64,000 nucleotides of DNA from a virus, in IMG/VR virus record IMGVR_UViG_3300029267_003532, positions 1 to 64,000 of that record. One strand, 5' to 3'. Position numbers and translations under genes: made by a program. The notes beneath the pieces were generated by a model. It saw nothing but the letters and a program-made list of their open reading frames with translations. It was not told the origin of the DNA and ran no database searches. Each line of letters starts with the position of its first letter. The first letter of the stretch is position 1. This document shows positions 5,582 to 26,190 of the stretch, in pieces.

Positions 5582-5718
5582 AGGGTTCTCCAATGGAATC
5601 AAGCCGCCTTGCAGTAGGGCAGGCGCGGCGGGGTACGCTTCCCAGGGCAACCCCCGTCGCGCCAACCATCTTATCATAGATCCAGATCAGGCGCAAACGC
5701 CACACGAAAGGAACGACC

Positions 5719-10252: not shown

Positions 10253-10435
10253 ATGATCACCTTGCTGATTGCGCTGATCCTGGCCCTGCTCTGGCGCGTC
10301 TCGCTCGAAACGCGCTTTCGCGTCCCGCGCGCCGTTGGCGAGGCCTTGATGCGTCTCCAGGTCGGCCGGCTGCGCCTGGACCTGATCGTCTATCGACCAC
10401 GCCGCGCCTACGCACACGTGATTGTCGGTCCCTAA
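10253..10435 (+). CDS. Small membrane-anchored protein
   Basis: GGAGG RBS and hydrophobic N-terminus. Confidence 0.6.
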   Translation: MITLLIALILALLWRVSLETRFRVPRAVGEALMRLQVGRLRLDLIVYRPRRAYAHVIVGP

Positions 10436-10459
10436 TTTTGGGCCGTCTCGTTTGTTATA
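10430..10459 (+). promoter_or_regulatory. Phage-specific promoter, copy 1
   Basis: CCCTAATTT-N12-TTTGTTATA. Confidence 0.75.
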
Positions 10460-10494
10460 GAGACACCACAATCACATTTTTCAGGAGGATTGTT

Positions 10495-10800
10495 ATGGGT
10501 CTAGACATGTATTTCAGGCGAGACATCGCCAACGTTCTGCGAGCCACTGCGTGTGCCAGTGAGGGAGCAGCAGGGTTGGCGATGGACATGGTCGAGGAAG
10601 CAAAACTGCGTGCCCAGTTGAACGCAGAGGGGATTCCTACGGAGCAGTTGCTTCGCATCTACCGTTTAGGTGTGCGCAACACGCTGATCTCGGTTGGCCT
10701 GGCATTTGGTTTGGAGCCAGTAGGACCGAGCGCTCAAGTGAGAACTGGAGCAGCCTCGGCACTAGCCAGCCTACTCTGGGCTGAGACACCGAGAGATTAA
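10495..10800 (+). CDS. Hypothetical protein (MGLDMY N-terminus)
   Basis: AGGAGG RBS; directly after the phage promoter. Confidence 0.65.
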   Translation: MGLDMYFRRDIANVLRATACASEGAAGLAMDMVEEAKLRAQLNAEGIPTEQLLRIYRLGVRNTLISVGLAFGLEPVGPSAQVRTGAASALASLLWAETPRD

Positions 10801-10817
10801 ACATTTCAGGAGGAAGC

Positions 10818-10982
10818 ATGTCCATCGTCACTGTGATCTTGGGAATGTTTGCAGCCTCTATCTTGATCACCCTCGGTGTAATCGCCTACCGTGCCGGAGG
10901 CTTTGGATACTACTTGATCGGCATTTCTATTTTGTTGATTGGCTGGCTGATCCGTAGCAAGCTAGAAAACAAGGGCAAGTAA
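10818..10982 (+). CDS. Small two-TM membrane protein
   Basis: AGGAGG RBS; MSIVTVILGMFAASILITLGVIAYRAGGFGYYLIGISILLIGWLIRSKLENKGK. Confidence 0.6.
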   Translation: MSIVTVILGMFAASILITLGVIAYRAGGFGYYLIGISILLIGWLIRSKLENKGK

Positions 10983-10997
10983 GCTATTGTACCGCAT

Positions 10998-11055
10998 AGA
11001 ACAAGCGTTCTTTAGAACAAAGGTTCTTGACTTGGCAGTCCCCTTTTGGTACAAT
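10998..11055 (+). promoter_or_regulatory. Promoter with two tandem LexA (SOS) boxes
   Basis: AGAACAAGCGTTCT (10998) and AGAACAAAGGTTCT (11014) abut TTGACT-17-TACAAT. Confidence 0.8.
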
Positions 11056-11115
11056 CGGGGTAATCCTGCCAAGAAATGTCAGGTTTAACTGCCATTGGGG
11101 GGCTAGGAGGTCATC

Positions 11116-11502
11116 ATGCCATTCGTTATGCAAGGCACCTTGTTTGGAGGTCCGCCCGTTGTCTCCGGCAACGTCGTCGACCGCCTCGAGTACATCCTCA
11201 CCGAACATCCTGAAGCGCGCGACTCATACAAGGCCGCAATGGCCCTCTACTGGCTAGAGTTCGACGGCCTCGACGCCGCCCTGCGCCAGGCGCTCGCGGA
11301 TGCACTCGACGAACGTCAAGCCGACCACCTTTGCGCCGAACTGGCTGATGCTTTTCAGCAATGGTTTGTCCGCTTTGCCACCTCGCCTAAAACGCTACAG
11401 AACCGTGCGATGGAATTGCAGTCAGACAAGACCGAGCTCGATTCCTCGCCCGATGTCCGTAAATGGCGAGATCGGCAGAGCAGGGCGGGGCGGATCAAGT
11501 AG
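11116..11502 (+). CDS. Hypothetical protein
   Basis: AGGAGG RBS and clean ORF. Confidence 0.7.
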   Translation: MPFVMQGTLFGGPPVVSGNVVDRLEYILTEHPEARDSYKAAMALYWLEFDGLDAALRQALADALDERQADHLCAELADAFQQWFVRFATSPKTLQNRAMELQSDKTELDSSPDVRKWRDRQSRAGRIK

Positions 11503-11691
11503 AGGAGAAAAGGATTAGACTTGTGATCATAAATTAAAAGATCAGACCCTGTACCTGGCGGGGGAGGGTCTGATCTACACCGGGAGAAAGGCGGCGCCAT
11601 TTACTCAGTTACGAGTTCAATCCTTTTAACACCCCACCTTTCCTACACACACTATAATAGTTTTTTCACCCAAATGCAAGAGAGGCACAAA

Positions 11692-12000
11692 ATGGATCAA
11701 AAAAGGACCCAAAGGTTTGCGCTCTTTGTTCTCGCCGAGCTGGCCTGGGGGACGCTCTTGGCTCTCTTTCTCCAGCACACGCGCCCCGGCCGCTATCTCG
11801 CTCGCAACAACCAGTCCTGGCTCGCCGTTGTCATCGGCGTCGCCGGCACCCTGATCATCGAGCTGATCGTCTCTCCTCTTCGCGCCGTCTGTCATAGCGC
11901 CCTGGCCTTCGCACTCTCTGCTGTCGGCATCGTGGCCCGGTCGCTGATCAACGAGCACAAGCTAGAAAGGACCCTCCACGATGCCGCGCACAGATCCTAG
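11692..12000 (+). CDS. Three-TM membrane protein
   Basis: Hydrophobic segments; GAGG RBS. Confidence 0.6.
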   Translation: MDQKRTQRFALFVLAELAWGTLLALFLQHTRPGRYLARNNQSWLAVVIGVAGTLIIELIVSPLRAVCHSALAFALSAVGIVARSLINEHKLERTLHDAAHRS

Positions 12001-12277
12001 ACCCTACACAAAGTGGGCCGCGATCGACGCGATCAAGGCCGTTGACGCGATCAAAAACCTGCACATCCAACTGATCCGCGGCTTGATCCAGGGAGACCGC
12101 GACGACCAGATCGCCGAGTACATCCTGCAAGCTGACCAACTGCTCTCCAGCCTGCGCGACCGCCTGATCACATTCCGAGATGGCCCCAATATTGAGCAGC
12201 TCGTCGACTGGATCATGGGTGACGAGACCTTGCTCTGTCTCATTGTCCATCGCCTGGAAGGAACGGATTCGCGTTAG
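11981..12277 (+). CDS. Hypothetical protein
   Basis: AAGGA RBS; overlaps the previous gene. Confidence 0.6.
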   Translation: MPRTDPRPYTKWAAIDAIKAVDAIKNLHIQLIRGLIQGDRDDQIAEYILQADQLLSSLRDRLITFRDGPNIEQLVDWIMGDETLLCLIVHRLEGTDSR

Positions 12278-12402
12278 GATCATAATCTGAAAGAGGACAC
12301 GATGGACAACTCGAATCTCCATACCCATCGCTTGAGACCTCGGTTTGGTTCTTACTATGACATCAATGCCTTTATTCGCGCATTAGAAATGCAAGGTTTG
12401 GT

Positions 12403-13779
12403 ATGACACAAAACACATTTCCGGGTTTTGTCCCCCCAACCGAAAACTGGAGCAAATTGCCCCACGTCCTGATCGAGGCACTGCCCTTGATCGAAACTGT
12501 TGGCGAGCTCAAGATCATCCTCTATGTGCTTCGCCACACCTGGGGCTACCACGAGACAGAAAAGCGTATCTCTCAAGATGAATTCGAGAACGGTCGCAAA
12601 CGCAAAGACGGCACGCGCCTCGACCCTGGCACCGGGCTCTCCCGAAACACCATCAAGGACGGCATCAAACGTGCCGTCGCTCATGGCTTTATCATCGTCG
12701 AAACGGATGACCACGACAAGGCCCGCATCCAACACTGGTATCGCCTCGCGGAACTGGCGCCTTCAGAGGGTCAAAAGTTGCCCCCCACCCACGAGCCGGA
12801 GGATCAAACTTTGACAGGTGGGGGTCAAAGTTTGACCCCCAGAGGGTCAAAAGTTGACCCCCCAACCGCGCCAGAGGGTCAAACTTTGACCGTCGTACAT
12901 GGAAAGAAACCTGTAAACAAGAAACAAACCAACAGAAAGAAAAATACCGGCGCATCCGCGCCGGCCCCAAATCCAGCACAGCAGCAGCTTGCTCGTCTTC
13001 GTTCCAAACTCGGCAGCGATCCCCTTTCTGTAGCGGCTGCATCAGAGCGAGCACAACAAGATGCCGGCGGGAGGATCTGGACCATACCTGTCGAAGCGGG
13101 GGGCACAGATACCGCCGGCGCGCTCATGCTCCGCGCCTGGCTGGAAACCAACCAGCTCGATCCCGATCTCGTGCCGAAAAAGACACACGACAAATACCAG
13201 GCCGCTCTTTCCAGGCTGGCTTCCACATTCGATACCCTTTCCCCCGCGCAGGCAGCCAATGCCGTCGAGATCGTCCTCGATCGCGACAACCCTGAATTCA
13301 GCTACTACACCTATGCTAACCCATCTGTCAAGAAATTCGCCGATGATTGGACCGCCGTTGCTCTGCGCCTGCTCTGCGGCCAGCCCGGCTACCTGACTGT
13401 GACTGGAAAGGTCCCACGCAACTATGACAACCTGATCAACCGTGGCGACACAGAAACCGATTTGATCATACCGGATAGCAATACTGCCGAATGGATCATC
13501 CCTCACGAGCCGCCATCCGAGGCCACCCAACTCTGGCACGCCGTCCAGGACGAGCTCAAACTTCAAATGACCCGCGCCACCTTCAACACCTGGATCAAAC
13601 CTCTGACCTGCCTCAGCCTGGACCGTGACGCCTGCACCGCCACGCTCCAGGCCCCCAACGCCTACATCGCCGAATGGATCACAGAGCGTCTATCCGCGCC
13701 CATCGCGCGCACCCTGGCCGGCGTCGCCGACCTGCCGCCGGATCAATTCTCCTTTACCTGCCAAGCGAGTGAACAATGA
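12403..13779 (+). CDS. Replication initiator (O-like wHTH N-terminus) fused to a C-terminal DnaA N-terminal domain
   Basis: ELKIILYVLRHTWGY...ISQDEF...GTGLSRNTIKDGIK; C-terminus LWHAVQDELKLQMTRATFNTWIKPL...APNAYIAEWI resembles DnaA domain I. Confidence 0.85.
   Translation: MTQNTFPGFVPPTENWSKLPHVLIEALPLIETVGELKIILYVLRHTWGYHETEKRISQDEFENGRKRKDGTRLDPGTGLSRNTIKDGIKRAVAHGFIIVETDDHDKARIQHWYRLAELAPSEGQKLPPTHEPEDQTLTGGGQSLTPRGSKVDPPTAPEGQTLTVVHGKKPVNKKQTNRKKNTGASAPAPNPAQQQLARLRSKLGSDPLSVAAASERAQQDAGGRIWTIPVEAGGTDTAGALMLRAWLETNQLDPDLVPKKTHDKYQAALSRLASTFDTLSPAQAANAVEIVLDRDNPEFSYYTYANPSVKKFADDWTAVALRLLCGQPGYLTVTGKVPRNYDNLINRGDTETDLIIPDSNTAEWIIPHEPPSEATQLWHAVQDELKLQMTRATFNTWIKPLTCLSLDRDACTATLQAPNAYIAEWITERLSAPIARTLAGVADLPPDQFSFTCQASEQ
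12766..12945 (+). repeat. Putative replication origin: five palindromic iterons and an A-rich tract inside the initiator gene
   Basis: GGTCAAANNTTGACC-like units at 12769, 12802, 12823, 12845 and 12877 (spacing 33/21/22/32), followed by A-rich 12903-12945. Confidence 0.8.
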
Positions 13780-14024
13780 AACGTGGAACCATTGGAACCC
13801 TATCTGCATCCAACAAAGCCGTTCTGGCCGGCATCCAAATCTACTGGGACGTCAACGGCATCCCACCCACAGTGCGCGATCTCTGCACGCAACTGCACAT
13901 CGCCTCGACGTCCACCATCCACCACCACCTCGACCGGCTCGAACGCCTGGGCTACATCCAGCGTCGACCCGGTATCCCGCGTTCCATTCGTATCACCCAG
14001 AAAGGCGCCCCCAATGCTGCCTAA
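13776..14024 (+). CDS. LexA-type DNA-binding-domain-only protein
   Basis: GIPPTVRDLCTQLHIASTSTIHHHLDRLERLGYIQRRPGIPRSIRI; no peptidase domain. Confidence 0.85.
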   Translation: MKRGTIGTLSASNKAVLAGIQIYWDVNGIPPTVRDLCTQLHIASTSTIHHHLDRLERLGYIQRRPGIPRSIRITQKGAPNAA

Positions 14025-14178
14025 CCCAACCCTGACCGCCCTGCTCCGCGAGCAGTGGACCTACACGCTCCGCCTCACTGTCCAGGCCTTCCTCGCCGCT
14101 CTGACCGGCACTTGGCTCGCCCTCACCTGCCCGCCGGTCAGGGCTGACCAAACCGAAGAGGTCAAACTTCCATGGTGA
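14014..14178 (+). CDS. Small hydrophobic hypothetical protein
   Basis: Fills the gap in the operon and overlaps both neighbours. Confidence 0.45.
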   Translation: MLPNPTLTALLREQWTYTLRLTVQAFLAALTGTWLALTCPPVRADQTEEVKLPW

Positions 14179-14912
14179 GCAGAAGAGGCATCAGACTCTG
14201 GTTTCGCTGGGTTGCCTGTCGCCGGCAGGCCCGCCGCTGGCTGCGCCACAACGACGCCGACAAGATCGTCGCCGCTGTAATGTGGCACCTGAACGTCGCC
14301 GCCGCGCACCTCTCACCGAGCTTCAAATCGAGCGCCATCTATGCACTCAAAAACCGCTTGATCCAGCACTTCTACCAGGCCGGCTACACGAGTGCCGTCC
14401 AGCTCAAAACACAAAAAGCGCTCTGCTGGCGCTGCGAGGGAACGGGCGACTTTTACGGCGAGGAATGCTGGAAATGCGAGGGGACCGGTATCTATCGCAT
14501 ACACCACCTCTATCTGTTCGTCTTTCGCATCGCCGGCCGTACCTATGCCTGGCACCAACCAACCAACCAGGTTGAGTACGACGTCACTCTAACGGATGAC
14601 ATCGTAGGCGCCTATCAGGCGCGGACCCGCGATCGAGGCGCCTTCCTTTTCGGCTATCCAGGCCTGCTTGTGCTTTACTACCTCACCGTGTACGAGTACT
14701 TGCGCCAGCGCGGCTACGAGGTCGCCCCCGACTACGACCTGCGTCCCCGTCTGGGCAAATGCATCGTCGAGGACTGGTCTGCCTGGGCCAGTTCGAAATC
14801 CTGGCTCTGCAAACTGAGCATCCTGACCGACCAGGTGCGTAACTGGCTGCAATCACGACCTCACAAAAACGTCGAGCGTGGCTTTGTCGAAGAAACAGAA
14901 ATCCCGTTCTGA
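14172..14912 (+). CDS. Hypothetical protein with CxxCxGxG zinc finger and SSB-like acidic-IPF tail
   Basis: CWRCEGTG...CWKCEGTG; ends EETEIPF. Confidence 0.65.
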   Translation: MVSRRGIRLWFRWVACRRQARRWLRHNDADKIVAAVMWHLNVAAAHLSPSFKSSAIYALKNRLIQHFYQAGYTSAVQLKTQKALCWRCEGTGDFYGEECWKCEGTGIYRIHHLYLFVFRIAGRTYAWHQPTNQVEYDVTLTDDIVGAYQARTRDRGAFLFGYPGLLVLYYLTVYEYLRQRGYEVAPDYDLRPRLGKCIVEDWSAWASSKSWLCKLSILTDQVRNWLQSRPHKNVERGFVEETEIPF

Positions 14913-14924
14913 AAGAGAGGATCA

Positions 14925-15461
14925 ATGAAATACGCCGAGAAATCGCCCTACTGGGTCACAACGGTCAACCCGTACAAATCCCAAGCCGAGATCATGGTCC
15001 TCCTCGAGGACTTCGGCGCAACCAACAGCATGGTCGCTCAGGGCCAGGCTGACGGCAAACTGGCTTGGCTCGTCCGCTTCGAGTACGAGGGCGTCGCGCA
15101 CCGCTTCGCCTTCACTCCGCTCGAATGCGAGTACCCGGACAAGGTCTCCAGCTTTGGCGGCACGCGCCGCAAGCACTCGGACCAGGCCCGGTTCCAGATG
15201 GGCCGCACCGCCGCCCATTTCACCAAAGCGATCCTGACTGCAGCCGAGTCCCAGCCGCACGCTCTCTTTGGCTTTGTCGAGCTGCCCGAGGCTGGCTACC
15301 ACGCCGGCGGCATTCCGGTCACAGCCGGCGAGCTCAACATAGACGGTCTGGTGGGCCAGCTACCCGAACTCTCATTCGGAGACATCGGCTCACGTCAGGT
15401 CCTGCTACAAGCCGAGACCCCGGACATCCGCGTCGAGTACGTTGGTGAGGTGGTCCAATGA
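14925..15461 (+). CDS. Conserved phage hypothetical protein
   Basis: GAGG RBS; operon-coupled. Confidence 0.65.
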   Translation: MKYAEKSPYWVTTVNPYKSQAEIMVLLEDFGATNSMVAQGQADGKLAWLVRFEYEGVAHRFAFTPLECEYPDKVSSFGGTRRKHSDQARFQMGRTAAHFTKAILTAAESQPHALFGFVELPEAGYHAGGIPVTAGELNIDGLVGQLPELSFGDIGSRQVLLQAETPDIRVEYVGEVVQ

Positions 15462-16231
15462 CCACCCCCAAACGCTATGACTGCATCTACCAACCGGCCG
15501 GCCGCGCACGCGAATACGCCCCCTGGGCGCTCAACCTCTACCGCGGCTGTGATCACGGCTGCACCTACTGCTACGCGCCGGCCATCGTTCGCATAGACCG
15601 CGCCGAATTCCACGCACACCCGACCCCATACCGCGACATCCTGCACCGCGTCGAACGCGCCGCCAAGCGAGCCAGTGGCCACGTCGAGCGGGTCCTGCTC
15701 TGCTTTACCAGCGATCCACACCAGCACCTCGACAGCCAGACCGGCCTCACCGGCCAGGCCATCGAGATACTGCACTGCAACGGCATCAAGGTCACGCTCC
15801 TGAGCAAAGGCGGCTGGCGCTCGATGATCGATATTGAGCGGCTTGGCCCCGGCGACGCCTACGCGACCACCCTGGCTTGCCCGCAATCCAGGGTGGCCGA
15901 ATGGGAGCCCAACGCCGCGCCCATCTCCCAACGGCTCGACGCGCTCGAACACGCCCGCTATCACGGCGCGGACACGTGGATATCTTTCGAGCCGGTGATC
16001 TGGCCCTGGGCAACCCTCGAGCTGCTCTCCCTGGCCCAAGGCCTGATCACCCACTGCAAGGTTGGACCGCTGAACTATGCCAACCGCCTGCCGGCGCACC
16101 TGCGCGCCCAGGTCCCCGAGGTAGACTGGGTGCAGTTCGCCGATAGCTTCCAGGCGCTATGTGATCGGTACAGGGTCGTGTGCCAGTTCAAGGAAGAACT
16201 TTATACCCGGATCGAGGCTGCTATCAAGTAA
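15458..16231 (+). CDS. Radical SAM protein (SplB/Rv2578c-like)
   Basis: LNLYRGCDHGCTYCYA, TSDP, WEPNA, WISFEP. Confidence 0.85.
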   Translation: MTTPKRYDCIYQPAGRAREYAPWALNLYRGCDHGCTYCYAPAIVRIDRAEFHAHPTPYRDILHRVERAAKRASGHVERVLLCFTSDPHQHLDSQTGLTGQAIEILHCNGIKVTLLSKGGWRSMIDIERLGPGDAYATTLACPQSRVAEWEPNAAPISQRLDALEHARYHGADTWISFEPVIWPWATLELLSLAQGLITHCKVGPLNYANRLPAHLRAQVPEVDWVQFADSFQALCDRYRVVCQFKEELYTRIEAAIK

Positions 16232-16248
16232 ACGGAGTGATTCCCATT

Positions 16249-16533
16249 ATGAACACAATCACAATCGTTCCCACTCGCACCTACAACCAAGCCTACACCG
16301 GCTATCACCTCTGCTTGCTCTCTATCTTCAAACGCGCCCGCCTGGACTGCGAAAAAGCCTCGCGCAAACACGCCGTCGATGCGCTCTGCTTTCTCTGCAG
16401 CGACCGCGCCGAGACTCTCAGCCAATACCTCAACATCACCACCGACGACCTCACCGGCCTGACCCGCCGCTGCTGGCAGCAGGTACGCGAACGCTTCGGC
16501 CTCACCCTGGACGATCTGGACAGACCGGACTAG
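16249..16533 (+). CDS. Hypothetical protein
   Basis: GGAG RBS; last gene of the operon. Confidence 0.55.
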   Translation: MNTITIVPTRTYNQAYTGYHLCLLSIFKRARLDCEKASRKHAVDALCFLCSDRAETLSQYLNITTDDLTGLTRRCWQQVRERFGLTLDDLDRPD

Positions 16534-16756
16534 TGGCAGGTCACTCTTCCTGAGATCGAATAACGCGAAAGCGGCGTGTAACTGTCTCCAGTGCACGCCG
16601 CAATATCAGAGCGACCGCGCCGATGATGATGAATAGTCGACGGCGCTTTTTGTTTTTGGGCTTGGACTCTGAGGAATCTTCGGATACTGGGATGCTGTTG
16701 GGTTCCGGCTGGTCTGTCATGATGGATGCTCCTCCTGTTATGAATCAAGTCGCTTA

Positions 16757-17557
16757 TCAGTAACAATACCGCGAGACCTCAGCCCCGCCGGCATCGTACA
16801 AATACCCACAGTCGCCCTTGTTATTCCACAGGGCTTGCTCGTTCCCAAAACTCAACCCGCAAGACTCCGGGTGGCCCTCGTTCGTATACACCCGACACAC
16901 CTGTCCCGGCTGCAGCTCGATCCCCGGAAACACAAAGTCCTGCCCCGGCGCGCCGGCGTTCAGACGCCAACCGCCCAGGTTCACCGACGAGCCGCCCTGG
17001 TTGGCGATCTCGGCATATTCGTCGCTCTCGACCCGCTTGACCACTCCATCGTAAAAGATGAACGAGATCACGACCTTGCCGGGGGCTGCTTGTGGCTCCG
17101 GGGTGTTTGTCGGCACGGGCGTCGCAGTCGGTATCGCCGTCGCCGTTGCCGCAATCGTCGGTACAGGTGTGGCCGTGGGCGGCGGCGTGTTGGTCGGGAC
17201 CAGCGTCGCGGTGGGCACACTCGTGGGCGTCGACGTCGCAGTTGGCGCCGGCGTGTTCGTGGGGACGGGCGTCGAGGTGGTTGTCGCTGTAGCAGTCGCA
17301 GTGCTGGTTGCCGTCTGGGTGTCCGGGGGCGAGGGCGTAACGGTTGACGTGGCTGTGCTGACCGGCGTTGGACTGGGCGACGCTGTCGCGGTCTCGGTCG
17401 GGATCGGCGTCGACGTCGGCGCGCTCGTGGGCGTCGCTGGCAGCGCGTCCGCATCCACAGGTAGTGGGGGCAGGGTGGCGATCCGGTTCGCTGTCGGCGA
17501 CGCGCAGCTGGCCAGCAGGACCAGGGAGAGGGCGAGTAGGGCGAGTGTGCGCTTCAT
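16757..17557 (-). CDS. Lipoprotein with Pro/Thr-rich linker and lamin tail domain
   Basis: Lipobox LLAS-C; PT repeats; [10 protein letters not shown]...DEYAEIAN...VNLGGWRL...LWNNKGD LTD signature. Confidence 0.85.
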
Positions 17558-17744
17558 GGTTAGAGCAGCCTTTGCACTAGATATCGAACGCCACTATTTT
17601 CATTCTACCCTAACTCGTGAAAAAGCACAAAGTCAGCGATCTATTGAGATTATGATCATAATGGAAAAGGTCACCGCGACAACGGTGGCCTTCAGATCAA
17701 GGACACTCTCGCTGGCGGGGGAGGCCGGCAGCCTGGGGCAGGGT

Positions 17745-18011
17745 CTACTCTCGCTCGCTCTCAGGCATCTCGTCGGGGTGATCGACCCAGAGCAGGTCGT
17801 TCGGGGTGCAGCCGAGGGCATTGCAGATACGGGTGAGGACAGCCAAAGAGATCATCTGTTGCTCGTTGGTAGCCATCCGAGAGAGAGTACTGGTTGACAC
17901 ATTGGCTTCTTCGCTGAGCATTCGATAGGTCATTCTGACCCCGCGCCGATCGCCGGCTAGGGCCATCCTAGAACGTAGTTGAAACCGTGCTTGCCCCATT
18001 GTTCCCTCCAT
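17745..18011 (-). CDS. XRE-family HTH regulator (YozG-like)
   Basis: YRMLSEEANVSTSTLSRMATN...ICNALGCTPNDLL. Confidence 0.85.
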   Translation of the reverse strand: MEGTMGQARFQLRSRMALAGDRRGVRMTYRMLSEEANVSTSTLSRMATNEQQMISLAVLTRICNALGCTPNDLLWVDHPDEMPESERE

Positions 18012-18034
18012 AAATCATTTACTATGCTGCGTAT

Positions 18035-18144
18035 AGTATACCACGGAAGACGTTACGATGTCAATACGCTACGCCGTCTAATTGTACGGATTTTCCACAT
18101 TTAGCAAACTGACCCTTGACAGAAAGACCAAGATCGAGTATACT
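18035..18144. promoter_or_regulatory. Divergent sigma70 promoters for the xre and sigma genes
   Basis: Minus strand TTGACA-18-TATACT (18064-18035); plus strand TTGACA-17-TATACT (18116-18144). Confidence 0.75.
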
Positions 18145-18300
18145 TATATTGAGTAATTGATACAACGAAGGAAAACGAAGAGGCGAGGTGCTACGAACAC
18201 CTCGCCCCGAATGCCAAAACCTACACTCGCGAAAGTCAGGACTCTGGCAGCCTCATGATACCACGAGAGGCGGTCAGGGTCAAACAACAGGAGGACCCGA

Positions 18301-18843
18301 ATGCTGACCACAGGCCAGCCGCTGACCGCCAATCAGCAAGCAACGCTAGTTGCCCTGCAACCCTATCTGACCCGCATTGCGCACAACATCGTGCGCACCC
18401 ACTACCCCGAGCAAGACGCCGACGAACTGCTCCAAACAATGAACGAAGCCATCTGCGAGCGAGCCGCCCAGGACCCGACCTTCCTCGACCAGACCCCGGG
18501 CTACATCACCCGCGCAGCCGCCTGGGCAGCCCGCAACTACTGCCAGCGCGAGCGCTTTGGCCACAACCTGGTCCCCCAGTCCCTGGACGCCGAAACCGGC
18601 GACGATCACACCCTGGCCGAGACGATCCCCGCGCCCCTCGCCGACCTCGATCTGCCCCTCGACGTCGCTCGCGCCCTGGCCAGGCTCAGTCGCAAGCGCC
18701 AACAGATCGTCGCAATGCTGGCCCAGGGTTTCCAGCGCAAAGAGATCGCCGAGCGCTTTGGCGTCAAATCGCCCAGCCTCACCTGGGACTTGAACAAGAT
18801 CAAGACCGTGCTGCAGCCGGTCTACGCAGCGGTGAGGAGGTAA
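18301..18843 (+). CDS. Phage-encoded sigma70-family (ECF-like) sigma factor
   Basis: Region 2 (DADELLQ...YITRAAAWAARNYCQRE), SLD linker, region 4 HTH (LARLSRKRQQIVAM...KEIAERFGV). Confidence 0.85.
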   Translation: MLTTGQPLTANQQATLVALQPYLTRIAHNIVRTHYPEQDADELLQTMNEAICERAAQDPTFLDQTPGYITRAAAWAARNYCQRERFGHNLVPQSLDAETGDDHTLAETIPAPLADLDLPLDVARALARLSRKRQQIVAMLAQGFQRKEIAERFGVKSPSLTWDLNKIKTVLQPVYAAVRR

Positions 18844-18847
18844 CACG

Positions 18848-19621
18848 ATGGATCAAGTCTACACGTTCACCTTTACATTCAAGGCCAACGGCCAGATTCG
18901 CAAGCAGACCCGCCGCGTGCCCATCGCCGAACTTTGGCAGAAATTTAACCTCGCCGCAGACTGGCGCCGCGAGGGCGTGCCCGAGGAGAACCGCAGGTCA
19001 GAGGTGTATGGCCCCGGTCTCTCCAAGGTCATCTGCGACGAATACGCGCGCCGGCGGCTGCGCGAAATCCTCGAACCGCTGGGCCTCGTGCCGATCGAGC
19101 CAGAGATCATCGGTCTGCTCTGGGCGCGCCTGGCCGGTGAGGATCGCTATCAGCTTTACAAAATTCGCAAAGAAACCGTCGAGCTCGAGGGCTACGAGCG
19201 CCCGCACCTGATCCACCACGGACTGATTCCCGTCTCCGACGACAAGGTCGACGCGGCATTCTGGTGGTCCACCGAGAAATGCTGGCGCGACCTGGGGATC
19301 TGGATCAACGATAGCCCTGGACTGATCATCATGTCGTACGTGAACACAGTCAAGGTCGCGCTTCAGGACATCCCTCACATTGTGCCCCAGTTGGCCGACG
19401 GACAGGTAATCCGCGCATCCGTCCGCTTTGACTACAAGGGCCGGGCCAATCGCTACCCATATATGGTTCCTACCCGGATCAAAACGCGGATCAACGATTT
19501 ACGCGGCCGCTACCCCAACGCGACTGAGGATCTCGCCGTCGTGCCGACATCGATCCTGCATGCGTCGTATGGCTATGGATTGCCCTCGGCATTGAGTCCC
19601 ACACCGGCATTCGCAGGATGA
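18848..19621 (+). CDS. Hypothetical protein
   Basis: GAGGAGG RBS and clean ORF. Confidence 0.7.
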   Translation: MDQVYTFTFTFKANGQIRKQTRRVPIAELWQKFNLAADWRREGVPEENRRSEVYGPGLSKVICDEYARRRLREILEPLGLVPIEPEIIGLLWARLAGEDRYQLYKIRKETVELEGYERPHLIHHGLIPVSDDKVDAAFWWSTEKCWRDLGIWINDSPGLIIMSYVNTVKVALQDIPHIVPQLADGQVIRASVRFDYKGRANRYPYMVPTRIKTRINDLRGRYPNATEDLAVVPTSILHASYGYGLPSALSPTPAFAG

Positions 19622-19710
19622 TATATGGATTCGGATCATAATCCAAATGCCCTTGCTCTATCTTGCCGTTTTTGGTAAGATAGAGTCACAAACAGAACGG
19701 ATGTGCTACT

Positions 19711-20424
19711 ATGACAAAACTACTGATCACCAAACTGCAAAAGCGGCCCGATGGCAACGTCGATCTCTTTGGCCGCGGTCATCGCTACAAAGACACGACC
19801 CTATTTGACGTGTCCGATCTCTTTGAGGTGGGCATTGACCCCGCCGATCTCCAGGTCGGTGTCGAGACGCCATGCCGGTTTTATGCGCACTGTGTCGCGT
19901 CTTCAAAACTGAACAAGAGCGGAAATCCTTACCTAAACGTCGAATACCTGGAGGCTGTTTCCAACGGCAACGGCAACGGCAACGGCCACCAGGCCGCGCC
20001 CGCCGGCGAACTGAACAGCGCCATTTTGGATGAGCTGCGCGCTGTTCACGGCGAACTGACTCAAATGCGCCGGCTGCTCAACCGTGCGTTTGTGGGGCAG
20101 GTCATCGACCCGCCGCTCGTAACGGATGACGACCCAACCGAACCGCCCACGGGTGAGGGAGATAACGACCTCGACGATCCTGACGACGTCCCACGCCCAC
20201 CTGCTACCAGTGCCCAGCCACTCAGCGACGATCAGGCGCGACGCAACTTTTCCAGCCTGGCCGGGCCGGCGATCCGCGAGGGCCAAGTCACGTCGGAGGA
20301 GGTCAATGAACTGGTCAAAGGTGCTATCGCCACAGGTTGGCGCGACGCGCTCGTCGAACTGCAGGCGCTGATTGCGCAGGCTGAGAGTGAGCAGGAACGC
20401 GAACTCGTTGCAGTTTATCCCTAA
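19711..20424 (+). CDS. Hypothetical protein (beta-rich N-terminal domain, acidic linker)
   Basis: Promoter TTGCTC-17-TAAGAT and LexA-like AGAACGGATGTGCT (19694) upstream. Confidence 0.7.
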   Translation: MTKLLITKLQKRPDGNVDLFGRGHRYKDTTLFDVSDLFEVGIDPADLQVGVETPCRFYAHCVASSKLNKSGNPYLNVEYLEAVSNGNGNGNGHQAAPAGELNSAILDELRAVHGELTQMRRLLNRAFVGQVIDPPLVTDDDPTEPPTGEGDNDLDDPDDVPRPPATSAQPLSDDQARRNFSSLAGPAIREGQVTSEEVNELVKGAIATGWRDALVELQALIAQAESEQERELVAVYP

Positions 20425-20448
20425 TTTTCATCGCCCTCATTTGTTATA
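20419..20448 (+). promoter_or_regulatory. Phage-specific promoter, copy 2
   Basis: CCCTAATTT-N12-TTTGTTATA. Confidence 0.75.
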
Positions 20449-20459
20449 TAGACACAACA

Positions 20460-20602
20460 CCTACCCGGTCCGAGACGCGGACTGACCACCGAATCCCCCA
20501 GGGTGGGACCGAGGTACAAGCCAGCAAACGCTGGACAACCTGACTGGCCACGAGCGCGGATTGGACGGCGAGATGACGGAGACCAACGACGGACCGGGTA
20601 GG
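20460..20602 (+). ncRNA. Candidate structured RNA or leader
   Basis: 13-bp perfect closing helix CCTACCCGGTCCG/CGGACCGGGTAGG with internal hairpins; starts just after a promoter. Confidence 0.5.
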
Positions 20603-20616
20603 GGAAAGGGGCTTCA

Positions 20617-20907
20617 ATGCTCATCATCCAATCTGCATGTGCCGAACTGATTGTTAACGTCAAAGACGATGGCTTGACCGACATCGACATGGGTCAGGCT
20701 ATCACGGCCGCAACCGACTACGTCGCCCAACAATTTCCCGGCGAGGATTGGAAACCAGTCGACGTCCAACTCGTCAACTATGATCGCGTTCGGGTCTACT
20801 ATCGTCGTCCGTTTACCGGAGAGTCCGACCTGGATGAAATCAACGCCCACTATGCCCGACTGGCTCGTGTGGGCGACTGCTGCCCGCCCGCTCTGGAGCC
20901 TGCATAG
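20617..20907 (+). CDS. Hypothetical protein
   Basis: AAGGGG RBS. Confidence 0.6.
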   Translation: MLIIQSACAELIVNVKDDGLTDIDMGQAITAATDYVAQQFPGEDWKPVDVQLVNYDRVRVYYRRPFTGESDLDEINAHYARLARVGDCCPPALEPA

Positions 20908-20916
20908 GAGATTCCA

Positions 20917-21552
20917 ATGAAACTTCAAGTTGCACACATCAATCCATCCTCCTACGTCGACGGCCCCGGCCAGCGTGCCGTCCTCTACCTGGCCGGCTGC
21001 CCGATCCGCTGCCCTGGCTGCCAGTCCCCGTATCTCTGGGACGAGAATGCCGGCGCCGCAACGGACGTCGACCAAGTGGCCGCCTGCCTGCTCGACACCG
21101 GTCTGCCGATCACCATCTCCGGCGGCGAGCCCTTCGCCCAGGCACCCGCCGTGGCCGAGTTACTCGTCGATCTGCGCATCCAGCAGCCCGACCTGCACAT
21201 CATCGTCTACACCGGCTTTGTGGTCGAAGACATTCTCGACGCCATAGCTCCCGCGATGCCCGAAGCGTGGGTTATCCTCCACGCCGCCAACGTCCTCGTC
21301 GACGGTCCGTTCCAACCCGAGGACGACCACGACCAGGTGCAGTGGCGCGGCTCCAGTAACCAGCGTCCCATCGACCTGCGCGCGACGTGGGAGCGAGCCT
21401 GGCGTTCCCTGGCCCTACTGGACTGGGATGCGCAGACCCTGACGATCACCGCAGACGGCGACCTGCTCGGCGCCGCCGGCACGATGGACGACCTATTCGG
21501 ATCACCAGCCCTGGTCCCCACGCGTATGTGCGGCCAGGTCAGAACAATCTAG
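20917..21552 (+). CDS. Radical SAM protein, NrdG/activating-enzyme-like
   Basis: DGPGQRAVLYLAGCPIRCPGC, ISGGEPF, VYTGF, LVDGPF, WRGSSNQR; no NrdD in the window. Confidence 0.9.
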   Translation: MKLQVAHINPSSYVDGPGQRAVLYLAGCPIRCPGCQSPYLWDENAGAATDVDQVAACLLDTGLPITISGGEPFAQAPAVAELLVDLRIQQPDLHIIVYTGFVVEDILDAIAPAMPEAWVILHAANVLVDGPFQPEDDHDQVQWRGSSNQRPIDLRATWERAWRSLALLDWDAQTLTITADGDLLGAAGTMDDLFGSPALVPTRMCGQVRTI

Positions 21553-21620
21553 CTGTTTCTCCTCCTGTTGGGGGTGCCGGGGGTGGTGTGGCAGCCATTC
21601 CCGGCCCCTCGTATTTTGGC

Positions 21621-21650
21621 CCCTAATTTTGGGGCCGCTCATTTGTTATA
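21621..21650 (+). promoter_or_regulatory. Phage-specific promoter, copy 3
   Basis: CCCTAATTT-N12-TTTGTTATA. Confidence 0.75.
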
Positions 21651-21709
21651 GATATAGATTGTGAACCTAATCTGAATGAGCAACCGAACAGGCCAAACAG
21701 GAGAACAAC

Positions 21710-23008
21710 GTGAGCGTCAAAATCGAGGACAACCCGATGGACACAGCCCAAGTTATTGCCGAAGCCAAGAGCATTATCAACCAGCGCCGCCGCGAGGCCG
21801 CCGAGCGGATGGGGGTGGACGAAAGCAAGGTCCAAACGCACCGCATCGAGCTACGTCGGCTCCGCGAGGCCGGTCTCCTGATTGACCTCGACATCCACGG
21901 CGTCTCGATGTTCAGCGTTCGCACGACCTACGCAGAGCTGGGCATCGGCGCAGAGGACGTCCGTGCCAAGCGGATGCGGGCAGGTACCAAGGACCTCTTT
22001 CCAGAATACAGCAAAAAGCTGCGCTCCCTCGAGGGCCGCGCGCGCCAGAACCTCGCCAAGCATTCACACTCGATCCCGGCCTTCGGCCAGTACCGGTGGC
22101 TTCCGTGGACAGCTTACCAGGCTTACTCGGACAAACACACCCAGATACTCGCCGAGCTCGATGCGACCAAGGCGGAATTGCTCGCCAAGTACGACGAGTT
22201 GCGCGAGGAAAACCGCGCCTACTTTGAGCAGGTCGCCCTGCGCGCCTGGCAGGACCTGCGCGCCGGATTCTCATATCCGGACAGCGGCATGATCGTTACC
22301 ACCGATCATACCGAGTTTGGCCCCGGCGAAGAGGGCAAGTTCGTCGAATACGTGGTTCAAAAAGTCCTTGGCCGGATGCCTCTCCCGGACGAAATCCGCG
22401 ACGGCGTGCGCATCGACTACAAGACCTCGATTCTCTACTCCGAGGCCGAGATCGCCGCCGACCAGTCCGCGCTCGAACAGGCTGAGGCCGAGTACGCGCA
22501 GGCCCGGTTTCAGCACGCGCAAGCCGAACAGGCTGCCTTCGACGTCCACCTCCAAGAGCGCGAGGCCGAGGGCCAAGTCCAAGCTCGCATCGCTGCCTAT
22601 CGCCGGGCCGAGCTCGAGCACGCGCGCCAACAGCTCGCCGAGATGGGCAGCCCCATCCAGGACGCCCTCGACGGCCTGCGTGCCAACTTGTACGACGCTG
22701 TACGCACGCTGCTGGCCGGCCTGCGCAAGAACACCACGTTTCGCGGCAAAGCCGGCTCCAAGGCCGCCGACCTGTATGCGTACTGGCACAAGTTGAACGG
22801 GGGACTGCTCCACGATGCCGACTTGGAGCAAGCCCTGGCCGCCTTGGACGGCGAGATGAAGTCCTACCAGGTCGCCGACAAAGACGCCCGGCAGACGCAG
22901 ATCGGCGACATCGAGACCCAACTCGCCGAGATCGCCGCCCTGACCGCCGAATCCGCGCGCAAGATTCGCAGCGAGTCGGGCAGCAGAGCTTCGGTCCTGG
23001 AATTGTAG
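21710..23008 (+). CDS. DUF3150-like coiled-coil protein
   Basis: LLIDLDIHG...GTKDLFP...ARQNL...FGQYRWLP pattern; ends SRASVLEL. Confidence 0.6.
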   Translation: MSVKIEDNPMDTAQVIAEAKSIINQRRREAAERMGVDESKVQTHRIELRRLREAGLLIDLDIHGVSMFSVRTTYAELGIGAEDVRAKRMRAGTKDLFPEYSKKLRSLEGRARQNLAKHSHSIPAFGQYRWLPWTAYQAYSDKHTQILAELDATKAELLAKYDELREENRAYFEQVALRAWQDLRAGFSYPDSGMIVTTDHTEFGPGEEGKFVEYVVQKVLGRMPLPDEIRDGVRIDYKTSILYSEAEIAADQSALEQAEAEYAQARFQHAQAEQAAFDVHLQEREAEGQVQARIAAYRRAELEHARQQLAEMGSPIQDALDGLRANLYDAVRTLLAGLRKNTTFRGKAGSKAADLYAYWHKLNGGLLHDADLEQALAALDGEMKSYQVADKDARQTQIGDIETQLAEIAALTAESARKIRSESGSRASVLEL

Positions 23009-23010
23009 CG

Positions 23011-23331
23011 ATGATGATCGTATTACGCAACACGACCAGCCGCAAGGACGCGGTGTACATCATTGAGGTGGACGAGGACAACCAAAAGGTGGCCGGTTGG
23101 TGGGGGCGCTGGGACACGTACCAAGCCCACGGCCTGGCTGGCCTGCGCAGTCAGATGAAATGGGACGGGCCATCCTATCAGAACGCGGCGGACAAGCTGC
23201 TGCGCCAAAAGCTAGAAAAAGGATATGTCCCCGTCGATCAACTGCCGGCATCTGTGTCGACGCCCGCGGCGCCCGATCCTAACCCGCCATCGCCCCGCCC
23301 GCGTTCACGGGCGGCAATGCTGGAGCTATAG
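23011..23331 (+). CDS. WGR-domain protein
   Basis: WWGR motif and KLEKGY; Pro-rich linker; ends SRAAMLEL. Confidence 0.7.
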   Translation: MMIVLRNTTSRKDAVYIIEVDEDNQKVAGWWGRWDTYQAHGLAGLRSQMKWDGPSYQNAADKLLRQKLEKGYVPVDQLPASVSTPAAPDPNPPSPRPRSRAAMLEL

Positions 23332-23877
23332 ATGTCAAACCTGGTACAGCTTGATTTCCTGACAATGATCCACTTGCCTCCTGTATGGACAGCGCCAATT
23401 CCCAGTGGATACGGACATTGGTGCTGTCCTCATTGTCACGATGCCGCCAGGGGATTTGAAGCCCCTTTATCGTTCCCTGCCACAAACAATCGCCAAATAG
23501 GTCAGTGCCGAACCTGTAACTATGAACATCACTTCAGCCTGCTTTATGGTCAAACTCCAAACGGGTATCCTGAGACGCGCATGGATTTAGAGCAGGCCCA
23601 TATCGCAGCTCACATTCGAACCGGGTTCCCCAAGATTTGCCCGGCTGGTCACGCGAATCCCGTTTGTATGGCAAATTGTGAGTCGTGTCCGCACCATCAA
23701 GCTGACGCGCGCTTGCACTGGCGCTGTAACCATCCGGCTTATCAAAAAGCGATTGGTGTACATTGGTGTCTAGGTTGTGGTATGGAACTTGGCCCTTGGG
23801 CAGAGGCTCATAATTGGCATTACTGCGGTGGGCCAACCAACCAATGCATGAGAGATTGGGAGATAACAAATGGATGA
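23332..23877 (+). CDS. Cys/His-rich multi-zinc-finger hypothetical protein
   Basis: Several CxxC motifs; lower GC than neighbours. Confidence 0.5.
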   Translation: MSNLVQLDFLTMIHLPPVWTAPIPSGYGHWCCPHCHDAARGFEAPLSFPATNNRQIGQCRTCNYEHHFSLLYGQTPNGYPETRMDLEQAHIAAHIRTGFPKICPAGHANPVCMANCESCPHHQADARLHWRCNHPAYQKAIGVHWCLGCGMELGPWAEAHNWHYCGGPTNQCMRDWEITNG

Positions 23878-24070
23878 ACGCACTCGCAACCGATTTGCCG
23901 CCAAGTTTGGTCTGCCTGCTGGACAGGTCCGAACGTTCGACGCGTTGACCGCGCACGAAAAAGAGGACGTGCGCCGCTACTACTCCCTCTACAATGCACG
24001 ACACTATGTCTACGCCATCAAGCGCGCTGGCGGATTGGTCGTGAAACGGTTCCGGCTCAATACCGCTTAG
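23870..24070 (+). CDS. Hypothetical protein
   Basis: GGAG RBS. Confidence 0.55.
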   Translation: MDERTRNRFAAKFGLPAGQVRTFDALTAHEKEDVRRYYSLYNARHYVYAIKRAGGLVVKRFRLNTA

Positions 24071-24089
24071 GATCATAATCCAAATCTAT

Positions 24090-24119
24090 CCCTAATTTCT
24101 AGCCTTCCCGTTTGTTATA
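24090..24119 (+). promoter_or_regulatory. Phage-specific promoter, copy 4
   Basis: CCCTAATTT-N12-TTTGTTATA. Confidence 0.75.
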
Positions 24120-24146
24120 TAGGTACAACTACAGGAGGGACAAACG

Positions 24147-25721
24147 ATGAACGTGAACAAACTGACCGCCATTCAACAAGCTGACGTCTTTATCCGCGCT
24201 CGCTACCCTGGGCTCTTTATCCGCTCGCAAGAGGAAGCGCGGGTCGAATCGGCCATTCGCGGCCTACTCGCGACCGGCAAGCACGCCCACAAGGAGGTCT
24301 TGACCTGGACCATCAGCCGGGGTGTGCGCCTGGCCGACGCGCCGGCAGAGGAATACGGGCCAACCGATCCGATCAGCGCCCTGCAGTGGTTCGCCGGTTA
24401 TGGCGTCACCGAGGAAAAGCCCGCCGGCACACCGGCGGTCGCCATCTTCAAGGACCTCGATCCCTATTTCCAAGACCCCCGCGTTGTTCGCGCTCTGCGC
24501 GACCTGATCGCCGACATCACCAGCACCCAGCGCACGCTGATCGTCATTTCCCCAACACCCAACGTGCCCGAATCCTGCAAGCGCCAGGTTGCCATGATCG
24601 ACTGGGCGCTTCCCACGGTCGACGAGCTGGCCGGCATGCTGGGCGACTTTATCGCCGACCTGCCTGACCGCGTACAATGCGACCTGAACGGCGACAAGGA
24701 GCAGGTTGCCAAGGCACTCTGCGGCCTCACCTGGTTTCAGGCCCAGTCGGTACTCGCCACCGCCGTGATTGCCACCGGCAAGCTGGACGGGGCTGCAATC
24801 GAGTTCATCATTTCGGAAAAAGCGCGCCTTGTCCGTGAATCCGGGCTCCTCGAGTTCTACCTGCCCGACAACCTGCCCGACATCGGCGGCCTGGATGAAC
24901 TCAAAACCTACATCTCGCGTAGGCGCCGCTCTTTCACGGACAAGGCCCGCGACTATGGCGTACCCACGCCCAAGGGCTTGCTCCTTGTCGGCGTGCCCGG
25001 CTGCGGCAAATCGCTGGCCTGCAAGTCACTCTCCAAGCTCTGGCGGCTGCCCCTGGTCCGCCTCGACGTCGGCGCGCTAATGGGCTCCCTGGTCGGCCAG
25101 TCAGAGGCCAACCTCCGCCAGGCGCTGCAAGTCGCCGAGTCATCCAGCCCCTGTATCCTCTGGCTGGACGAGATTGAAAAGGGCCTCGCCGGCGTCAAGT
25201 CGAGTGGGCAAACCGATGGCGGGACCACCGCCCGCGTTTTTGGCGCGCTGCTCACCTGGCTCCAGGAAAAGACCGCGCCGGTTTACATGGTCGCAACCAG
25301 CAACGACATCAGCGCGCTGCCGGCAGAGCTGCTGCGCGCCGGACGTTTCGACGAGACCTTTTTCGTAGACCTGCCCAACACGCAGGAACGCCGAGAGATT
25401 TGGACCATCCACGTCGCCAAAGCCGGCCGCAATCCGGCCAACTTTGACCTCGAGGCCTTGGTCCAGGCCAGCGACGGCTATACAGGTGCAGAGATCGAAG
25501 CCGCAGTCGGCGACGCTTTGATCGCCGGTTTTGACCAGGATCGCGAGATCACTACCGGCGACCTGGTCACAGCCATTGCGGGCCGCGTGCCCCTGACCGA
25601 GACGATGGACACGCAGATCAACGCCCTGCGCAAATGGGCTGCCCGGCGCGCCAAGCCGGCCAGCAGCGCCCAAGCCGGCCAGGCCGAGTCCAAGAGCCGC
25701 GCCGCGACACTCGACTTATAG
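24147..25721 (+). CDS. Ycf46-like AAA+ ATPase (SpoVK/Ycf46/Vps4 family)
   Basis: IRARYP...EEAR N-domain, DIGGLDELK, GVPGCGKS, LWLDEIEKG, ELLRAGRFDE, LRKWA; ends SRAATLDL. Confidence 0.92.
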   Translation: MNVNKLTAIQQADVFIRARYPGLFIRSQEEARVESAIRGLLATGKHAHKEVLTWTISRGVRLADAPAEEYGPTDPISALQWFAGYGVTEEKPAGTPAVAIFKDLDPYFQDPRVVRALRDLIADITSTQRTLIVISPTPNVPESCKRQVAMIDWALPTVDELAGMLGDFIADLPDRVQCDLNGDKEQVAKALCGLTWFQAQSVLATAVIATGKLDGAAIEFIISEKARLVRESGLLEFYLPDNLPDIGGLDELKTYISRRRRSFTDKARDYGVPTPKGLLLVGVPGCGKSLACKSLSKLWRLPLVRLDVGALMGSLVGQSEANLRQALQVAESSSPCILWLDEIEKGLAGVKSSGQTDGGTTARVFGALLTWLQEKTAPVYMVATSNDISALPAELLRAGRFDETFFVDLPNTQERREIWTIHVAKAGRNPANFDLEALVQASDGYTGAEIEAAVGDALIAGFDQDREITTGDLVTAIAGRVPLTETMDTQINALRKWAARRAKPASSAQAGQAESKSRAATLDL

Positions 25722-25725
25722 AAAT

Positions 25726-25768
25726 CCCTAATTTTTGGTCTGCCCATTTGTTATATGGGCAGACCAAA
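25726..25768 (+). promoter_or_regulatory. Phage-specific promoter, copy 5, embedded in a 14-bp inverted repeat
   Basis: CCCTAATTT-N12-TTTGTTATA; TTTGGTCTGCCCAT-TTGTTAT-ATGGGCAGACCAAA. Confidence 0.75.
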
Positions 25769-25782
25769 CCAAGGAGGATAAC

Positions 25783-26190
25783 GTGAGCAAATATCGGAAA
25801 CTCAAGACCAAATTCACCAGCCGCGTGCACCTGCGCGAGGCGCTCCAAGCCACCGGCTTGCCTTTCGAAGAGGCCCGGCCTGGTCAGGCCCTGACCCTCA
25901 ACGGATACGGCGGGCAGCGGCGCGAAGCGACCTTTGTAGTCCGCAAGCGGGCGCTGGGCGCACGATACGGCGACTTTGGCTGGCAGTGGGATCCCGCGAC
26001 CAAGGGTTTTACTCAGATTGAGGATGATCTCGACGCCGGCCATCTGCCCGTTCAGCAGAACCTGCAGGCCATCAAGCGCGAGTATGCCTACGCTGCGACC
26101 GTGACACAGGCGAGGGTAAAGGGCTACCAGATTCGTCGCATCGACCTGCCGTCAGGCGAGATTCAAATCCAGGTTACAGGGAGGATCTAA
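25783..26190 (+). CDS. Ycf35/DUF1257-like protein
   Basis: S-x-Y..LKTKF...LREAL...GYGGQ...DFGW...REYA...KGY pattern; follows the Ycf46-like ATPase. Confidence 0.8.
   Translation: MSKYRKLKTKFTSRVHLREALQATGLPFEEARPGQALTLNGYGGQRREATFVVRKRALGARYGDFGWQWDPATKGFTQIEDDLDAGHLPVQQNLQAIKREYAYAATVTQARVKGYQIRRIDLPSGEIQIQVTGRI

Follow-up and report, generated by a model that had tools for sequence, protein, structure and literature searches.

What reads a bipartite motif that recurs at a fixed spacing in the genome of an uncultured phage, and which genes would it control? The motif, CCCTAATTT-N12-TTTGTTATA, lies in a stretch of 64,000 nucleotides (the window), the opening part (bases 1-64000) of one virus record of 79,955 bp (IMG/VR record IMGVR_UViG_3300029267_003532; G+C 58%) from a tailed, metagenome-assembled phage. 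The same window encodes, at 18301-18843, a protein related to sigma factors of the extracytoplasmic function (ECF) type. The sites are probably promoters, read by host core RNA polymerase together with this ECF-like sigma of the phage.

An exact scan finds five matches to the motif, at 10430, 20419, 21621, 24090 and 25726, all on the plus strand, where dinucleotide-preserving shuffles give a chance expectation of 0.00. The starts of the two boxes lie 21 bp apart in 5/5 copies. All five copies stand at gene boundaries and are oriented with the genes, and in two of them the TAA within box 1 is the stop codon of the upstream open reading frame (ORF; 10253-10435 and 19711-20424). Four copies are found 28-60 nt upstream of starts that carry a Shine-Dalgarno sequence (ATG 10495, GTG 21710, ATG 24147 and GTG 25783), while the fifth, at 20419, precedes a 163-nt leader. 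The positions, the strand, the 21-bp distance and the placement at gene boundaries had all been put forward in a sequence-only reading of this DNA, and each of them holds. The sites, with their predicted start bases (+1), are as follows.

10430..10459, plus strand: predicted promoter copy 1, predicted +1 A10465; downstream are ATG 10495 (101-aa protein) and 10818-10982 (54-aa membrane protein)
20419..20448, plus strand: predicted promoter copy 2, predicted +1 A20454; followed by the leader, the ORF 20617-20907 and the radical-SAM gene 20917-21552
21621..21650, plus strand: predicted promoter copy 3, predicted +1 A21656; ahead of GTG 21710 (432-aa protein)
24090..24119, plus strand: predicted promoter copy 4, predicted +1 A24125; ahead of ATG 24147 (AAA+ ATPase)
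25726..25755, plus strand: predicted promoter copy 5, predicted +1 A25761; downstream are GTG 25783 (DUF1257 protein), a DUF2997 gene (26190-26411) and more plus-strand genes

No extra site with up to 3 mismatches occurs in the window, and the full 79,955-bp genome holds no copy beyond the five. A weight matrix was built from 15 sites of four related phages. Scanned over the full phage genome, a check that the sequence-only reading had proposed, it scores the five sites at 37-42 bits and the next independent site at 11.6 bits, compared with a mean of 11.0 and a maximum of 14.9 bits in shuffled sequence. The next-best site is thus at shuffle level, so the genome contains no weaker members of the motif.

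The sites are conserved in related phages as well as repeated within this one. Every sigma-bearing related contig with usable flanks has the motif, on the sigma strand and at the same junctions.

G001 (IMGVR_UViG_3300009506_000029, 61 kb): sigma identity 73%, 5 copies, form CTCTAAyTT-N12-nnCGTTATA
L014: sigma identity 70%, 4 copies, motif form as in G001
L013 and L015: sigma identity 46-48%, 2 copies, form CCCTAACTT...CCGTTATA

The conserved gene order is sigma, two uncharacterised genes, radical-SAM, the 432-aa protein, small genes, AAA+ ATPase and DUF1257. The orthologue of copy 1 in G001 (L002 3512) stands before the homologue of the 101-aa gene, and orthologues of copy 2 are found ahead of the radical-SAM gene at L002 12780, L014 3181 and L013 2445. 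Copy 3 has orthologues at L002 13565, where box 2 reads GTTTTA, and at L014 6074; those of copy 4 are at L002 16316 and L014 8221, and those of copy 5 at L002 17953 and L014 9928. In ungapped orthologous pairs, identity is 90% in box 1 and 98% in box 2, with 48% in the spacer and 35-36% in the flanks. The spacer register is the same in 5/5 window copies and in 15/16 distinct copies across the four phages; a single L013 copy has one extra bp in its spacer, a deviation that promoters tolerate.

This conservation bears on whether the sites are promoters at all. They might instead be binding sites of some other protein, terminators, or recombination or module boundaries, and the copies at 10426-10445 and 21617-21637 can form a short hairpin followed by T-rich sequence, for which they had been flagged as terminator-like. 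Three of the five copies and most relatives, however, lack the hairpin, and the two boxes are mutually unlike, forming neither direct nor inverted repeats. The fixed 21-bp register, the strict gene orientation and the short distance to start codons are likewise at odds with a role other than promoter, which we regard as highly improbable. A terminator reading was rejected, the hairpin being present in just 2/5 copies.

The layout of the sites indicates what type of promoter they would be. The consensus of the 15 sites is T-CyCTAAyTTT-n-GG-n4-CcCAT-t-yGTTATA, in which A5-A6 followed by T or C occurs in 15/15 sites, G25-T26-T27 is invariant and positions 2 and 24 vary between C and T. The -35 element of ECF promoters contains AAC/AAY and their -10 element CGTT/GTT, with a rigid spacer between the two (PMC6411747, PMC8103513). 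In Mycobacterium tuberculosis (Mtb), sigma-H promoters combine GGAAYA at -34 to -29 with G-11 T-10 T-9, the optimal spacer being 17 bp, and nearly all box positions and the spacer length are essential (PMC6411747); RpoE reads GGAACTT (PMC8103513). The phage sites resemble these bacterial promoters (Mtb sigma-H GGAAYA-N17-GTT, EcfG AAC...CGTT and Escherichia coli RpoE GGAACTT; PMC6411747, PMC8103513) in the A-tract plus pyrimidine of the -35 element, the (C)GTT of the -10 element, the rigid spacer and the near-invariant boxes. They differ in having CT before AA, where the bacterial ones have GG, in an AA-to-GTT distance of 20 bp, compared with 21 in sigma-H, and in a -10 box that extends to GTTATA.

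A start site can also be proposed from this alignment. Column 36, six bases past box 2, is purine-only in the 15 sites (10 A, 5 G), as is no other column past the boxes, and in 5/5 window copies it is an A after a pyrimidine. Setting G25-T26-T27 at -11 to -9, as for G-11 T-10 T-9 of Mtb sigma-H, places +1 on column 36, which is therefore the likely start site; a purine at the +1 predicted with GTT at -11 to -9 is a further likeness to the bacterial ECF promoters. From this sequence layout, the five sites match ECF-type promoters and not sigma-70 promoters, and we infer that they are promoters.

The alternative of a sigma-70 holoenzyme guided by a phage activator bound to CCCTAATTT, in the manner of T4 MotA/AsiA, would make TGTTATA an extended -10 element. 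The window copies all read TG-T-TATA, which resembles TGnTATAAT, and the upstream box occupies the position of a MotA box. But the relatives have CG in place of TG, so an extended -10 is not conserved, and the essential T-7 position varies (A, G or T) while G25-T26, which lies outside the sigma-70 hexamer, is invariant; the -35 region matches the housekeeping form at 1/6 positions. Genuine sigma-70 promoters in this genome are near consensus, and no activator candidate was identified. An activated sigma-70 promoter is very unlikely on these grounds, and the simple extended -10 reading was rejected because TG is not retained in relatives and T-7 is not conserved. The sequence-only reading had already set the motif apart from sigma-70, and the relatives bear this out. 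Near-consensus sigma-70 promoters are present at 6609, 11027, 18064 (minus) and 18116, showing that the housekeeping promoter type of the host is canonical and that the five-copy motif belongs to another class.

The other half of the proposed pair is the product of the gene at 18301-18843.

18301..18843, plus strand: divergent ECF-like sigma gene, 180 aa, with a sigma-2 domain, a disordered linker and a sigma-4 domain

Sequence profiles detect the protein weakly. Pfam Sigma70_r4_2 matches it with an E of 3e-5 and 24 bits, under the cut-off of 25.7, and the sigma-factor family phrog_1740 matches at an E of 4e-5, while the Sigma70_r2 profile gives no match. NCBIfam TIGR02937 (sigma70-ECF) matches 13/14 family members nearly end to end, with a best E of 1.2e-9, although the score of 23.5 bits is below the curated cut-off of 42.9, as are the scores in 13/13 of the family matches. 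An AlphaFold model built from 14 homologues (mean pLDDT, the predicted local distance difference test, 80.5) contains two helical domains, with helices at 10-88 and 117-179, joined by a low-confidence linker at 88-112. The top Foldseek matches are all sigma factors, led by the ECF sigmas SigL, SigE, SigH, AlgU and RpoE. Residues 113-180 superpose on region 4 of E. coli sigma-E bound to -35 DNA (2h27_D) with Z 9.3 and a root-mean-square deviation (rmsd) of 2.0 Å over 68 of 69 residues. Residues 9-86 superpose on the N-terminal domain of SigE (8b3z_F) with Z 8.7 and rmsd 2.4 Å over 73 of 77 residues, and on 5uxx_A with rmsd 2.7 over 80. At 180 aa the protein has two domains and a linker only, without regions 1.1 or 3, which is the ECF architecture. 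Because the fold and the architecture agree, where the sequence thresholds do not, the product was accepted as a divergent ECF-like sigma; judged from the model, it is best called an ECF-like, divergent relative of the ECF (group 4) sigmas. The ECF-like sigma named by the sequence-only reading is thus a real gene, both of whose domains match solved ECF sigma domains.

This sigma family is rare. It comprises 15 clusters among 5.8 billion proteins, no homologue is found in 185,579 species genomes, and tblastn of the sigma against a phage collection of 50,697 records returns no match. The motif is similarly restricted. Its exact form has 55 scattered single matches in the 185,579 species genomes (596 Gb of prokaryotic sequence), mostly in AT-rich taxa and without clusters. 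Among 2.9 million viral contigs a looser motif has 69 matches, each of them alone on its stretch; this looser pattern requires T at position 23, so that G001 itself then shows one match only. Eleven distant phages carry a homologue of the AAA+ protein (32-41% identity) without the sigma and without the motif within 10 kb, which indicates that the motif accompanies the sigma rather than the cargo gene. Co-occurrence and promoter type together make it probable that the phage sigma is what reads the five sites.

A host-encoded alternative sigma of the ECF type could also recognise real promoters of this layout, leaving the phage sigma to serve another target, for example the GGATCATAAT sites. The AAY...GTT layout is common to many bacterial ECF regulons (PMC6411747, PMC8103513), and a second repeated motif is present both in this phage and in G001. 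Yet the prokaryotic genomes hold only the scattered single matches given above; among viral contigs, the only record seen with several copies is the sigma-bearing G001, and the sigma gene is always directly upstream of the promoter-bearing block. The GGATCATAAT sites, moreover, have a sigma-70-like CATAAT/TATGAT core and no ECF features. Reading by a host ECF sigma is therefore unlikely, and promoters read by the phage sigma fit the conservation pattern better than any of the three alternatives.

Several points weigh against the pairing of the phage sigma with these sites. The sequence-profile scores of the sigma lie below curated cut-offs. The co-occurrence of sigma and motif involves four lineages of one small clade, and shared ancestry could explain it. 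The second dispersed motif (GGATCATAAT) could in principle be the target of the sigma. The full-genome scan finds no copy of the motif before the virion genes, which are on the minus strand; most likely, then, a part of the genome would lie outside the control of the sigma. Finally, no RNA run listed for this stretch holds the phage.

The second dispersed motif has the form (T)TAGGATCATAATC(y)(r)AA and is found mostly at gene junctions, in both gene blocks. Its sites are at 2918, 12274, 19634, 24067, 33709, 52531 and 56207 of the window and at 78499 of the genome, with further sites at 7023(-), 17654/17657 and 47075(-). One copy stands directly upstream of promoter copy 4, and another at 33.7 kb, where a large inverted repeat separates two convergent genes and holds the copy in its loop. 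The motif also occurs in G001, including an orthologous site between the two genes after sigma, and may serve as an operator or a partition-type site. Two copies of a repeat of about 70 bp, with a GGATCATAAT site and a promoter-like stretch (TTGGCT-18-CATAAT), are present at 2880-2945 of the window and 78460-78525 of the genome, about 4.4 kb apart across the record ends.

How would the sigma itself be expressed? No copy of the five-site motif was found upstream of the sigma gene in the weight-matrix scan, that is, there is no autoregulatory copy. The region instead contains the following features.

18116..18144, plus strand: sigma-70-type promoter TTGACA-17-TATACT, preceding the sigma gene
17745..18011, minus strand: 88-aa Cro/CI-type (XRE) helix-turn-helix (HTH) regulator, divergent from the sigma gene
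18170..18283, minus strand: candidate antisense unit in the sigma 5' leader, with a predicted RNA of about 75 nt (roughly 18248 to 18172)

An equivalent TTGACA...TACAAT precedes the sigma gene of G001. The HTH gene has its own promoter (TTGACA-18-TATACT at 18064-18035) and a good ribosome-binding site. The antisense unit consists of a promoter (TTGACC-17-TATCAT at 18283-18255) and a hairpin with a T-run (18208-18170); both the promoter and the terminator-like hairpin are kept in G001, and the unit is a candidate for an antisense RNA inside the sigma leader. No anti-sigma gene was found, and the 257- and 237-aa proteins encoded downstream have no Pfam, PHROG or atlas match. On the side of the HTH gene, a long plus-strand ORF at 17058-17897 is probably spurious, the minus strand there carrying the HTH gene, and the minus strand at 16757-17557 encodes a 266-aa protein with a lamin-tail domain.

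These elements suggest a sequence of events. Host sigma-70 holoenzyme would first transcribe the sigma gene from the 18116-18144 promoter, probably under modulation by the divergent XRE regulator and the small antisense RNA. The new sigma would then redirect core polymerase to the five sites. Sigma domain 4 would bind CyCTAAyTT at about -35 to -27, domain 2 would read yGTTATA at about -12 to -6, and transcription would start at the purine six bases past box 2, at A10465, A20454, A21656, A24125 and A25761. At 10.5 kb this would switch on a pair of small genes, and from 20.4 kb the conserved block of radical-SAM, the 432-aa protein, AAA+ ATPase, DUF1257 and DUF2997; genes as far as 33.7 kb may be included. 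Among the largest ORFs tested there is no likeness to a phage RNA polymerase, therefore the host core polymerase must transcribe the genome. The sites with their layout and conservation, like the fold of the sigma, are established directly by the analysis, whereas promoter activity, reading by the phage sigma and timing are inferred.

The predicted regulon and the genes before it are arranged as follows.

18848..20424, plus strand: two genes (257 and 237 aa), always directly after the sigma gene
20617..26411, plus strand: regulon core, comprising a 96-aa ORF, radical-SAM (Fer4_12), the 432-aa protein, three small proteins, AAA+ ATPase, DUF1257 and DUF2997

In the L013 lineage, the 257-/237-aa gene pair has its own promoter copy. 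The 96-aa ORF (20617-20907) has no match in the relatives, and the 432-aa protein (GTG 21710) has DUF3150-like neighbours in the protein atlas. The stretch from 26 to 33.7 kb shows neither a convincing terminator nor a strong sigma-70 promoter; without a terminator, read-through into the RusA and methyltransferase genes is possible, and the sigma-driven output may include genes past the AAA+/radical-SAM ones, as far as 33.7 kb. The sequence-only reading had described a private middle regulon with the AAA+/radical-SAM module as its main output. Promoter-like sites, an ECF-like sigma and conserved junctions agree with a private regulon, but its output may be larger than that module. The word 'middle' is a guess about timing, given that the genome encodes an integrase and a CI-like repressor, besides a second regulator, of the XRE type, that is transcribed away from the sigma gene.

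The AAA+ ATPase, DUF1257 and DUF2997 genes adjoin one another (24147-26411). In two distant phage contigs (L147 and L148), the AAA+ homologue is again followed by a radical-SAM homologue, and the AAA+ family, phrog_8638, also occurs in cluster-O mycobacteriophages such as Corndog.

Two of the leaders are themselves conserved. The leader at 20454-20616, after copy 2, is about 88% identical to that of L014, far above the adjoining non-coding DNA. It has a possible 13-bp closing stem, with one compensatory change and one broken pair relative to L014, and a fold z-score of only -1.7; the sequence-only reading had placed a candidate structured RNA there. G001 is without the leader that follows copy 2, and no further copies were found in viral contigs. 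Rfam families have no match anywhere in the window at gathering scores, nor in 20400-20700 when E values up to 1 are admitted. The leader is a candidate cis-regulatory RNA before the radical-SAM gene, as judged from its conservation. The leader after copy 3 contains an element, GAACCTAATCTGAAT, that is conserved in three phages (window 21656-21709, L002 13595-13640 and L014 6104-6130). TGAACC is also found 3' of both L013 promoter copies.

The wider genome is that of a temperate-type phage, encoding an integrase and CI-like repressors.

4721-5677, minus strand: tyrosine-integrase-family gene
6058-6585, minus strand: CI-like HTH gene, facing a perfect sigma-70 promoter at 6609

The phage also encodes a tape-measure protein and tail genes, partition-like, FtsK-like and replication-initiator genes, and several DNA methyltransferases. 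The window has no tRNA genes, and megablast finds no close relatives in the phage collection. A near-identical family of sigma-70 promoters, of the form CCTTGACTTG...TTTGGTAyAAT, occurs at 79177(-) of the genome and at 3968(-), 4121(-) and 11027(+) of the window. A separate stretch at 36275-36560 of the window contains TGAGGATGCCAGAAGGAAG in three copies at 138 bp spacing.

It is conceivable, although doubtful, that the sigma gene, the divergent XRE regulator and the antisense RNA form a dedicated switch gating a conserved accessory cassette (radical-SAM, DUF3150-like, AAA+ ATPase, DUF1257 and DUF2997) apart from the replication and virion genes. If so, this would be a sigma-gated module, for example for counter-defence or for DNA or protein remodelling, one operon of which has a highly conserved 150-nt leader that matches no known RNA family. 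The sigma and its predicted sites offer a clean, testable pair from an uncultured lineage with no close relative in the phage collection: the five sites are near-identical, each has a predicted start base, and the relatives supply natural variants. Through the pair, the AAA+/DUF1257/DUF2997/radical-SAM cassette stands out as a unit under separate control, which may aid the search for the role of this widespread cassette, and an orthogonal sigma-promoter pair can be useful for synthetic circuits.

T4 middle promoters have a phage-specific MotA box in place of the -35 element. Their canonical TATAAT is still read by sigma-70, whereas the -10 region here is not of the sigma-70 type. A marine flavobacterial phage is reported to have a like arrangement, with the -10 box ACGTTATATA. 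Phage sigmas with few, highly conserved private promoters are well known from phiEco32 gp36, phage 7-11 and SPO1. Coliphage phiEco32 (gp36) and Salmonella phage 7-11 each encode an ECF-like sigma that serves middle and late promoters of its own (PMC12276001, PMC4331800). There, as predicted here, host sigma-70 promoters yield a small phage sigma, which redirects the host core to few highly conserved, low-copy phage promoters. The phiEco32 promoters, however, have a single element, AATGTA, centred at -11.5 (PMC12276001), in contrast to the bipartite sites with a fixed spacer described here. The present sigma does not qualify as gp36-type, the tblastn search of the phage records having returned no match, and no gp79-like partner was identified; its predicted regulon is an accessory block and not the virion genes, in a phage with lysogeny-type genes. 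In Bacillus phage SPO1 (gp28, gp33/34), phage sigmas replace the host sigma on core polymerase and read bipartite phage-specific promoters (PMC13401047), much as proposed here. SPO1 is strictly lytic and its sigmas drive all middle and late genes, compared with five promoters only in this phage. The present system would thus extend the short list of characterised phage sigma regulons by one that is bipartite and of ECF style, and it is set apart from the known cases by that style, by a new and rare sigma lineage, by a predicted output confined to an accessory cassette and by an adjoining switch-like region in a temperate-type genome.

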